From the NCBI RefSeq assembly GCF_054482525.1, contig NZ_CM137006.1: a DNA stretch of 64,000 nucleotides, one strand, 5' to 3'. A model generated the notes under the pieces. It saw only the letters and a list, made by a program, of their open reading frames with translations. It made no database searches and was not told where the DNA came from. Of this stretch, positions 30,997 through 57,807 are shown piece after piece. Each line of letters opens with the position of its first letter. Position 1 is the stretch's first letter. The position numbers were made by a program, and so were the translations under genes.

Positions 30997-31650
30997 ATGC
31001 GGCAATTCATAATCTCTGAAAATACCATGCAAAAAACTTCTTTTAGAAATCACCAGGTTAAGCGATTCAGCTCGCAACGTTCTACCAGGCGTAAACCTGA
31101 AAACCAGCCCACGCGTGTGATCCTGTTCAATAAACCCTACGATGTTCTTCCGCAGTTCACCGATGAAGCCGGACGCAAAACATTAAAAGAATTCATCCCG
31201 GTTCAGGGCGTTTATGCGGCAGGTCGTCTCGACCGCGATAGCGAAGGGTTGCTGGTGCTGACCAATAACGGCGCGTTGCAGGCGCGTTTAACCCAGCCGG
31301 GTAAACGCACCGGAAAAATCTATTATGTGCAGGTGGAAGGTATTCCCACACAAGACGCACTTGAAGCCTTGCGCAATGGCGTAACCTTAAATGATGGCCC
31401 TACCCTGCCCGCAGGCGTAGAGCTGGTTGACGAACCCGCGTGGTTATGGCCGCGGAATCCACCAATTCGTGAACGCAAAAGTATTCCCACCAGCTGGCTG
31501 AAGATCACCTTATATGAAGGACGTAATCGCCAGGTGCGCCGCATGACCGCCCATGTTGGTTTCCCCACGCTGCGACTGATTCGCTATGCGATGGGTGATT
31601 ACTCTTTGGATAATCTTGCCAACGGCGAATGGCGAGAAGCGACAGATTAA
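30997..31650 (+). CDS. rluE: 23S rRNA pseudouridine synthase RluE
   Basis: 217 aa; recognised as RluE (YmfC) by sequence and synteny next to icd. Confidence 0.9.
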
Positions 31651-55567: not shown

Positions 55568-56533
55568 TTGGTGATGATCAAAACGCGTTTTTCTCGCTGG
55601 CTAACGTTTTTTACGTTCGCCGCTGCCGTGGTGCTGGCGCTGCCGGCAAAAGCCAACACCTGGCCGCTGCCGCCAGCGGGCAGTCGTCTGGTTGGTGAAA
55701 ACAAATTTCATGTTGTGGAAAATGACGGTGGTTCTCTGGAAGCCATTGCCAAAAAATATAACGTCGGCTTTCTCGCTCTGTTACAGGCTAACCCCGGCGT
55801 TGATCCTTACGTACCGCGCGCGGGTAGCGTGTTAACGATCCCGTTGCAAACCCTACTTCCAGACGCGCCGCGCGAAGGCATTGTGATCAACATTGCGGAG
55901 CTGCGTCTCTATTACTACCCGCCGGGTAAAAATTCGGTAACCGTGTATCCCATCGGCATTGGTCAGTTGGGTGGTGACACGCTGACACCGACAATGGTGA
56001 CCACCGTTTCAGACAAACGTGCAAACCCAACCTGGACGCCAACGGCAAACATCCGCGCCCGTTATAAAGCACAGGGAATTGAGTTGCCTGCGGTAGTTCC
56101 GGCTGGACCGGATAACCCAATGGGCCATCATGCGATTCGTCTGGCGGCCTATGGCGGTGTTTATTTGCTTCACGGTACGAACGCCGATTTCGGCATTGGC
56201 ATGCGGGTAAGTTCTGGCTGTATTCGTCTGCGTGATGACGATATCAAAACACTCTTTAGCCAGGTCACCCCTGGTACCAAAGTGAATATCATCAACACCC
56301 CGATTAAAGTCTCTGCCGAACCAAACGGTGCGCGTCTGGTTGAAGTACATCAACCGCTGTCAGAGAAGATTGATGACGATCCGCAACTGCTGCCAATTAC
56401 ACTGAATAGCGCAATGCAATCATTTAAAGATGCAGCACAAACTGACGCTGAAGTGATGCAACATGTGATGGATGTCCGTTCCGGGATGCCGGTGGATGTC
56501 CGCCGTCATCAAGTGAGCCCACAAACTCTGTAA
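55568..56533 (+). CDS. ldtC: L,D-transpeptidase LdtC (YcfS)
   Basis: About 320 aa with signal peptide, LysM-like segment and catalytic ...HGT...SSGCIRL... motif. Confidence 0.85.
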   Translation: MVMIKTRFSRWLTFFTFAAAVVLALPAKANTWPLPPAGSRLVGENKFHVVENDGGSLEAIAKKYNVGFLALLQANPGVDPYVPRAGSVLTIPLQTLLPDAPREGIVINIAELRLYYYPPGKNSVTVYPIGIGQLGGDTLTPTMVTTVSDKRANPTWTPTANIRARYKAQGIELPAVVPAGPDNPMGHHAIRLAAYGGVYLLHGTNADFGIGMRVSSGCIRLRDDDIKTLFSQVTPGTKVNIINTPIKVSAEPNGARLVEVHQPLSEKIDDDPQLLPITLNSAMQSFKDAAQTDAEVMQHVMDVRSGMPVDVRRHQVSPQTL

Positions 56534-56541
56534 ATCCTGGA

Positions 56542-56583
56542 TAAAAAAATCCCCGCGACACGGCATGTCGCGGGGAAAAAAAT
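56542..56583. terminator. Bidirectional intrinsic terminator between convergent ldtC and bhsA
   Basis: A-tract, CCCCGCGACA-CGGCA-TGTCGCGGGG, A-tract. Confidence 0.65.
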
Positions 56584-56615
56584 CAGCAGTAGCAGGCATT
56601 AATGAGGGTTAATGC

Positions 56616-56873
56616 TTATTTATAAATTACTGCTGTTCCATGGAGGGTATTCGGACCGGTTACAGAAGTAATACGGAAAGATTTTGCGCCCATCTCATCC
56701 GCTTTTTGCGCCAGCTGCTCTTCCAGCGATCCCAGATTTGTCCCCGCGTTAGCACTGATAGTACCGACTTTTTGTTGGCCTTCTGGCGTTGACTGAACTT
56801 CGACAGCCGCAAAGCTGGCAAATGACATTGAGCTTAAAATCGCCGCAGCGATGAGGGTTTTTACGTTTTTCAT
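56616..56873 (-). CDS. bhsA: Multiple stress resistance protein BhsA (YcfR)
   Basis: 85 aa with signal peptide MKNVKTLIAAAILSSMSFASFA. Confidence 0.85.
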   Translation of the reverse strand: MKNVKTLIAAAILSSMSFASFAAVEVQSTPEGQQKVGTISANAGTNLGSLEEQLAQKADEMGAKSFRITSVTGPNTLHGTAVIYK

Positions 56874-56941
56874 AATAGTGGCCTTATGCAGATGAATGAC
56901 GTCGCAAGCAATTACTTAACGATCGATAACTAAATGATAGA

Positions 56942-56957
56942 TGTGATCTGGATCACA
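56942..56957. promoter_or_regulatory. Palindromic TGTGA-N6-TCACA site (CRP-consensus-like or ComR operator) in the bhsA-comR divergent region
   Basis: TGTGATCTGGATCACA read directly, about 70 bp upstream of the bhsA start. Confidence 0.4.
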
Positions 56958-57113
56958 TACAAGATATTTTTTATAACAATCATTAATTAATTTAAAAATC
57001 TTTAAATTTCAGTTAAATAGAAAGCAATTATTTTTATGGTTTGTGGACTGGTGAACGGAGGTGATTATTTTTATAATAACCTTTCATTCACAGTCACCAG
57101 GTACAACGGCATC

Positions 57114-57746
57114 ATGGCAACTGACTCAACACAATGTGTAAAAAAAAGCCGTGGCCGCCCAAAAGTGTTCGACAGGGATGCCGCGCTTGATAAGGCCATG
57201 AAATTGTTCTGGCAGCACGGTTATGAAGCGACTTCTCTTGCGGACCTCGTCGAAGCGACCGGAGCCAAAGCGCCCACGCTATACGCGGAATTTACCAACA
57301 AAGAGGGGTTATTCCGCGCCGTACTCGACCGCTATATCGATCGTTTTGCCGCTAAGCATGAAGCACAGCTGTTTTGTGAAGAGAAAAGCGTGGAGTCTGC
57401 GCTGGCTGACTATTTTGCTGCCATCGCCAACTGCTTTACCAGCAAAGACACCCCGGCTGGCTGCTTTATGATCAACAACTGCACCACCCTCTCCCCGGAT
57501 TCCGGAGATATCGCCAATACGCTGAAATCACGCCATGCGATGCAAGAGCGCACTTTGCAGCAGTTTTTATGTCAACGACAAGCGCGCGGGGAAATCCCGA
57601 CCCACTGTGACGTGACGCATCTGGCAGAATTCCTTAATTGTATTATTCAGGGGATGTCGATCAGCGCACGCGAAGGTGCATCGCTGGAAAAACTGATGCA
57701 GATTGCCCGAACGACTTTGCGTTTATGGCCCGAACTGGTGAAATAA
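57114..57746 (+). CDS. comR: TetR-family repressor ComR (YcfQ)
   Basis: 210-aa product from MATDSTQCVKKSRGRPKVFDRDAALDKAMKLFWQHGYEATSLADL... (TetR HTH); trimmed to Met27. Confidence 0.82.
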   Translation: MATDSTQCVKKSRGRPKVFDRDAALDKAMKLFWQHGYEATSLADLVEATGAKAPTLYAEFTNKEGLFRAVLDRYIDRFAAKHEAQLFCEEKSVESALADYFAAIANCFTSKDTPAGCFMINNCTTLSPDSGDIANTLKSRHAMQERTLQQFLCQRQARGEIPTHCDVTHLAEFLNCIIQGMSISAREGASLEKLMQIARTTLRLWPELVK

Positions 57747-57807
57747 GGCGCAAAAAAAGCCCCTCAGCCTGAGCGAATGGGGGGCTAAATTGCAGAATAC
57801 AGCCTTG

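Follow-up and report, generated by a model that had tools for sequence, protein, structure and literature searches.

The bhsA-comR locus and its promoters

The genes bhsA and comR are divergently transcribed from a 240-bp spacer within the 64,000-nucleotide (64-kb) stretch of E. coli chromosomal DNA analyzed here, referred to below as the window. According to the RefSeq annotation of identical chromosomes, the gene order is ldtC (+), bhsA (-), comR (+) and ycfJ (-), and Pfam assigns TetR_N and TetR_C_13 domains to ComR and a YdgH_BhsA-like domain to BhsA. The G+C content is 31% in the spacer and 50% in the window as a whole. Over positions 56500-57800 the sequence is 100% identical to that of E. 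coli strains PCN033, VCSW7 and others, the bhsA-comR region is found in 5425 of 5426 complete E. coli genomes, and of 5423 E. coli genomes 5093 carry the 86-bp core promoter at an identity of 99% or more. Just three differences separate the spacer from that of K-12 MG1655 (57040, 57041 and 57043), all of them far from the CRP site described below. The features of the region are as follows.

56616-56873, minus strand: bhsA (ycfR/comC), encoding a DUF1471 outer-membrane stress protein (RefSeq annotation, Pfam)
56916-56929, no strand assigned: candidate ComR operator TTAACGATCGATA(A), an imperfect palindrome centred at +5.5 of bhsA in the most conserved block of the spacer
56927, minus strand: bhsA transcription start (+1; Kim et al. 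2012, Table S1), at a distance of 54 nt from the ATG
56934-56939, minus strand: bhsA -10 element TATCAT (-12 to -7), from its position relative to the mapped start site and its aligned conservation
56942-56957, no strand assigned: CRP-cAMP binding site TGTGATCTGGATCACA, from sequence, ChIP-seq, matrix score and conservation
56957-56962, minus strand: probable bhsA -35 element TTGTAT (-35 to -30), placed by its spacing to the mapped start site, with a 17-bp spacer
56972-56987, no strand assigned: second related element, TATAACAATCATTAAT in E. coli, from the alignment, centred at -52.5 of bhsA
57068-57077, plus strand: TTTTTATAAT, an invariant aligned block with a consensus -10 TATAAT (57072-57077), putative comR core promoter
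57114-57746, plus strand: comR (ycfQ), divergent from bhsA and encoding its TetR-family copper-responsive repressor (annotation, Pfam)

In Table S1 of Kim et al. 2012, bhsA has one K-12 start site, supported by 145 reads and followed by a leader of 54 nt. The 51-nt upstream sequence given there agrees base for base with the minus strand of the window from 56977 to 56927, which places +1 at 56927. Across the other genera examined, the -10 element reads TATGAT or TATCAT. The -35 element is weak in E. coli, with matches at three of six positions, and shares its last base with the CRP site, where that base is the first T. In most other genera the element reads TTGACG and is shifted upstream by one base, with an 18-bp spacer, seen as a conserved GTCAA on the plus strand. 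Because of the poor -35 match, a simple promoter scan missed the real bhsA promoter. The scan proposed instead a minus-strand candidate at 57055-57027, the same as the computational bhsA promoter of Shimada 2014 (TTCACC-17-AATAAT, about 57055-57027), which was not adopted because the mapped start site is at 56927. If the Shimada 2014 promoter were also used, the CRP site would lie downstream of it and act as a roadblock, not within its spacer. A further candidate on the plus strand, overlapping the comR ATG, is a scan proposal only.

On the comR side, a longer reading frame of 236 aa begins at ATG 57036. Since the alignment has indels and the conserved -10 block upstream of 57114, the annotated start at 57114 is, as far as the aligned sequences go, the credible one.

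A near-consensus CRP site: match, conservation and occupancy

The 16-mer TGTGATCTGGATCACA is located exactly at 56942-56957 and consists of the two CRP half-sites TGTGA and TCACA with 6-bp spacing, enclosed in a perfect 8+2+8 palindrome, ATGTGATC-TG-GATCACAT (56941-56958). The comR ATG (57114) lies 157 bp downstream of its far edge. A preliminary description of this DNA, made from the sequence alone, had reported the 16-mer at these coordinates, with both half-sites and the right spacing, about 70 bp upstream of bhsA in the bhsA-comR divergent region. All of this is borne out: the match is perfect and the only one in the window, and its near edge lies 69 bp from the bhsA ATG (56873, minus strand) within the 240-bp spacer. 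FNR sites have the form TTGAT-N4-ATCAA. As the half-sites and spacing TGTGA-N6-TCACA are of the CRP type, a site for FNR or another member of the CRP family was rejected.

From shuffled sequences, 0.09 perfect copies of TGTGA-N6-TCACA are expected in 64 kb, and 9 of 100 shuffled windows contain at least one. When up to two mismatches are allowed, the 64-kb window has 21 matches compared with 28 expected, so that there is no enrichment. The window count by itself is only suggestive and constitutes weak evidence; the case beyond chance comes from the matrix score and the conservation of the site.

For the score, we derived a symmetrised weight matrix from the table of Haycocks 2015, using the 106 sites there other than the one at bhsA. 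With this matrix the CRP site obtains 21.2 of a possible 21.75 bits, the highest score in the window, where the second-best 16-mer reaches 14.9 bits. All of the training sites score below it (median 13.0 bits, maximum 19.9 bits). Compared with the synthetic consensus AAATGTGATCTAGATCACATTT, 18 of 22 positions match.

For the conservation, we collected 80 comR loci from enterobacterial genomes, 72 of which have a divergent bhsA and a spacer of 238-250 bp, giving 73 spacers together with the window. These come from Escherichia, Citrobacter, Salmonella, Enterobacter, Lelliottia, Kosakonia, Siccibacter, Buttiauxella and other genera. The aligned CRP site scores at least 13.6 bits in all 73 orthologous spacers, with a median of 19.4. 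Among the 39 distinct versions of the site in this set, a single base occupies each of positions 2, 4-7 and 12-14, three or four different bases occur at each of the central positions 8-11, and changes within the half-sites are limited to T1 to C, T3 to C, C15 to T (once) and A16 to G, T or C. The resulting variant half-sites (CGTGA, TGCGA, TCACG/T) carry substitutions that real CRP sites often show. Only Escherichia has the extended palindrome; across genera the arms beyond TGTGATC/TCAC and the centre vary. In the aligned sequences, fixed contact bases combined with a free central 4 bp read as the signature of CRP.

Occupancy of the site is on record. Table 1 of Haycocks 2015 (PMC4287617) lists 111 high-confidence CRP ChIP-seq targets in ETEC H10407, and exactly TGTGATCTGGATCACA is the MEME-predicted motif under the high-confidence peak at ycfQ/bhsA. 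The preliminary description had suggested a comparison with curated CRP sites, and this table supplies the identical 16-mer. In addition, an EMSA of CRP on the ycfR upstream region is attributed to Zhang et al. 2007 where that work is cited in a Klebsiella paper. An EcoCyc/RegulonDB-based study (PMC6121374) assigns bhsA to an incoherent type-2 feed-forward loop with comR; CRP acts as a repressor in the incoherent type-2 loops of that study, which lists bhsA as repressed by both CRP and ComR. These functional data come from other E. coli strains (ChIP-seq from ETEC, the start site and the microarray described next from K-12) in which the promoter DNA is identical.

The microarray series in File S1 of PMC6121374 was measured in a cyaA tolC mutant after 15 min with cAMP at 0, 0.01, 0.03, 0.1, 0.3, 1, 3 and 10 mM. 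In this strain bhsA mRNA falls steadily as cAMP rises (log2 values of 0, -0.24, -0.42, -0.96, -1.09, -1.66, -1.74 and -1.94 along the series), in a whole-cell measurement to which indirect effects could contribute part of the bhsA response. The preliminary description had stated that an absence of both CRP binding and cAMP-dependent regulation would speak against its reading; the published data report binding as well as regulation, and the CRP site that it proposed for the divergent region is supported by ChIP-seq occupancy, the cAMP response and the EcoCyc/RegulonDB link. We conclude that TGTGATCTGGATCACA is a real, near-perfect and already documented CRP site, ordinary though conserved.

Repression of bhsA and the place of ComR

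Relative to the mapped start site, the CRP site spans -30 to -15 and fills the -35/-10 spacer of bhsA. Activating CRP sites were taken as those centred near -41.5 (class II) or near -61.5, -71.5, -82.5 or -92.5 (class I), whereas this site is centred at -22.5 of bhsA and at about -135 of the putative comR promoter. Its position at bhsA is that of a repressing and not of an activating site. Since the site fills the -35/-10 spacer and the response to cAMP is negative, steric occlusion is the likely mechanism, as deduced from the geometry. When cAMP is high, a CRP dimer would occupy and bend the DNA inside the core sigma-70 promoter of bhsA, and its presence between the -35 and -10 elements would keep RNA polymerase off and turn bhsA down. 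When cAMP is low, the promoter would be free and would answer to ComR, the copper-responsive repressor of the TetR family, whose most likely place is the invariant TTAACGATCGATA block that lies next to the CRP site and covers the start site. We consider it highly probable that bhsA carries a near-consensus CRP site in its core promoter and is repressed there by CRP-cAMP through occlusion, with ComR as the local repressor.

It is unlikely that the CRP site mainly serves comR, with the effect on bhsA arising secondarily through ComR levels. The two genes share the divergent spacer, the loop assignment derived from EcoCyc/RegulonDB (PMC6121374) implies a CRP-to-comR link as well, and ycfQ is reported to be up under glucose limitation and in stationary phase. 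However, repression through comR only predicts that bhsA goes up with cAMP, and it falls. The site is also in register with the mapped bhsA -35 and -10, while it lies about 135 bp upstream of the conserved comR -10 (57072-57077), which is not a standard activating position. A conserved TATAAC/TATAAT on the plus strand at 56972-56977 could be the -10 of a distal comR promoter, which the CRP site would overlap at about -35; such a promoter is conceivable but unsupported, and Table S1 of Kim et al. 2012 (K-12) has no comR start site next to bhsA.

Genomes that have lost bhsA bear on the same question. Pseudescherichia vulneris, Escherichia sp. ESNIH1 and Enterobacter spp. ENT03 and Bisph1 (four genomes) have kept comR without bhsA, with ldtC followed directly by comR at the deletion loci (L059, L064, L073 and L074). 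There the CRP site and the AACGATCG-type element at +5.5 of bhsA are lost, the AACGATCG-type element at -52.5 is lost or decayed, and the comR-proximal TTTTTATAAT alone is kept, which argues against a site serving mainly comR, a gene that these genomes retain together with its proximal promoter block. The joint loss with bhsA indicates that all three elements are part of the bhsA promoter. By itself it does not separate CRP from ComR as the protein bound at the palindrome, as a ComR operator would also be lost along with bhsA.

A second alternative, which we hold to be quite improbable, is that the palindrome is the operator of ComR, instead of or besides being a CRP site, and that copper releases ComR dimers from it. 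In favour of this, the palindrome is perfect and is flanked by a TetR-family gene and the known target of that gene, although the presence of a palindrome in the spacer beside a TetR-family gene, which holds for the 8+2+8 sequence, is a necessary and not a specific trait of TetR operators. ComR has been reported on the bhsA/comC promoter, and the part of a review that deals with Mermod 2012 describes ComR as without autoregulation and gives its site as '60 bp upstream' of comC/bhsA, near the 69-84 bp of the palindrome. Across genera, however, only the CRP contact bases of the palindrome are fixed, while the central 4 bp and the right outer base vary. Conservation of the whole operator, as expected for a TetR-family protein, is seen in TTAACGATCGATA and not in the palindrome, and this better operator candidate lies 13 bp away over the start site. 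CRP occupies the palindrome in vivo, bhsA responds to cAMP, and a Klebsiella DUF1471 paralogue has its CRP footprint at the same position in a study that invokes CRP alone (see below). The preliminary description held that the palindrome 'could equally be' the ComR operator; with conservation of the CRP type and a better block in TTAACGATCGATA, we do not favour the two as equals.

The strongly conserved blocks of the spacer, according to a weighted conservation profile, are the CRP half-sites, TTAACGATCGATA, TTTTATAA (56969-56976) and TTTTTATAAT (57068-57077). The longest of them, and the most conserved part of the bhsA-comR spacer, is TTAACGATCGATA (56916-56928), which is near-invariant in the 73 loci. 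With its additional A it covers -1 to +12 of bhsA, 45-58 bp upstream of the ATG. From its sequence and position, this block is likely to be the ComR operator, and a better candidate for it than the CRP palindrome. None of the full texts searched contains TTAACGATCGATA. Copy number gives no support to the motif TAACGATCGWTA, as its 13 matches in the window (up to two mismatches), against 7.7 expected, are no enrichment. In Citrobacter, the related element with its centre at -52.5 forms a perfect palindrome, TATAACGATCGTTATA, while the E. coli version TATAACAATCATTAAT is degenerate through two symmetric CG-to-CA changes. Judging from the alignment, it may be a second operator, an A/T-rich UP element of the bhsA promoter, or both.

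The AACGATCG-type elements at +5.5 and -52.5 flank the CRP centre at 27 and 30 bp. One can imagine that the CRP bend is a hinge that joins two ComR dimers on these flanking palindromes in a three-site looped repression module, a proposal that we regard as highly speculative and very probably wrong. If it were true, carbon status and copper or stress signals would be integrated cooperatively on one looped complex and not by two independent repressors. The evidence speaks neither for nor against such a module, and the upstream element of E. coli may simply be a UP element. That the palindrome arose by chance in AT-rich intergenic DNA and regulates nothing is extremely improbable: although perfect matches turn up in some shuffles and relaxed matches are not enriched, all 73 orthologous spacers keep the site in a CRP-specific pattern, CRP is found on it in vivo and the adjacent gene is cAMP-responsive.

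Comparison with known systems and additional observations

Among E. coli CRP sites, the bhsA site is alike in its half-sites, 6-bp spacing, ChIP-seq binding and cAMP-responsive target; it is stronger than most natural sites, and nothing in the site itself differs. The activating CRP positions in Haycocks 2015 are at about -40.5 and -92.5, in contrast to -22.5 at bhsA. A parallel in position is KP1_4563 of Klebsiella pneumoniae, a CRP-repressed DUF1471 paralogue of bhsA between the fim and mrk clusters, for which the published study invokes CRP alone. Its CRP DNase I footprint covers the stretch 49-85 bp before the ATG, a range that includes the 69-84 bp of the bhsA site. CRP-repressed occlusion promoters have a site within or next to the -35/-10 region and a negative effect of cAMP-CRP, and bhsA is alike in both respects, with occlusion itself deduced; unlike the promoters compared, it has a second, local repressor in ComR. 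The cyaA P2 promoter is a CRP-repressed promoter of this kind, with a site overlapping core elements.

As in the type I TFTR arrangement (acrR/acrAB), comR and bhsA are divergent, with short palindromes in their 240-bp spacer. Compared with TetR-family operators, the bhsA palindrome behaves as a CRP site, and the likely operator is the neighbouring TTAACGATCGATA. The locus is listed as an incoherent type-2 loop in which CRP represses comR and bhsA and ComR represses bhsA, the CRP-to-comR arm coming from the curated network; the data consulted gave neither a start site nor a cAMP response for comR. The genes ybiJ, yahO and yjfY are presumably DUF1471 paralogues of bhsA. CRP peaks are also found at ybiJ, yahN/yahO and yjfY/rpsF (Haycocks 2015, Table 1), and CRP control may be a family-wide trait of the DUF1471 small stress proteins.

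The CRP site at bhsA is already known from the CRP ChIP-seq literature and curated regulatory networks. It offers a clear textbook example of repression by a near-consensus CRP site, placed exactly in the -35/-10 spacer of a gene for stress and biofilm, with a local TetR-family repressor alongside and conservation of the CRP site across the Enterobacteriaceae. The new product is modest, namely a phylogenetic footprint of the spacer and a precise ComR operator candidate, TTAACGATCGATA, at -1 to +12.

Several individual genomes show additional features. Kosakonia sacchari SP1 (L062/L078) and K. arachidis (L065/L081) each have two comR-bhsA pairs, and both copies in these genomes retain the CRP site and the TTAACGATCGATAG block. 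In one of the bhsA-deletion loci (L064), the deletion endpoint is apparently inside the former CRP site, of which ATCACG is left. A sequence titled Chryseobacterium sp. 18061 (L051, CACSKA010000011.1) has a typical enterobacterial ldtC-bhsA-comR arrangement with a ComR 77% identical to that of E. coli, and the assembly is probably mislabelled or contaminated.

Within the window, the comR coding region contains a near copy of the operator-like sequence at 57335-57346 (AAACGATCGATA, minus strand). Chance probably accounts for it, because matches at such stringency occur without enrichment in the window. Shortly before its AAGG ribosome-binding site, the 54-nt bhsA leader has conserved blocks at 56890-56898 (minus strand TTCATCTGC) and at 56901-56904, and these may represent a post-transcriptional control element or a small RNA target. 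An Rfam scan of 56300-57300 gave nothing in the spacer, with sub-threshold hits of unrelated sRNA families on the bhsA terminator hairpin alone. The K-12 annotation has a small RNA, BhsB (b4832), over the bhsA 3' end and terminator, corresponding to about 56544-56643 of the window on the minus strand, and the window carries a matching strong terminator with its stem at 56576-56550 and a T run.

The window holds a second documented CRP site at 31116-31131: TGTGATCCTGTTCAAT, which on the opposite strand reads ATTGAACAGGATCACA, the site given for (rluE)/icd in the CRP ChIP-seq data of ETEC; its matrix score is 11.8. Positions 1 to about 30000 of the window are not collinear with VCSW7, and the lambdoid prophage remnants next to icd differ between strains.
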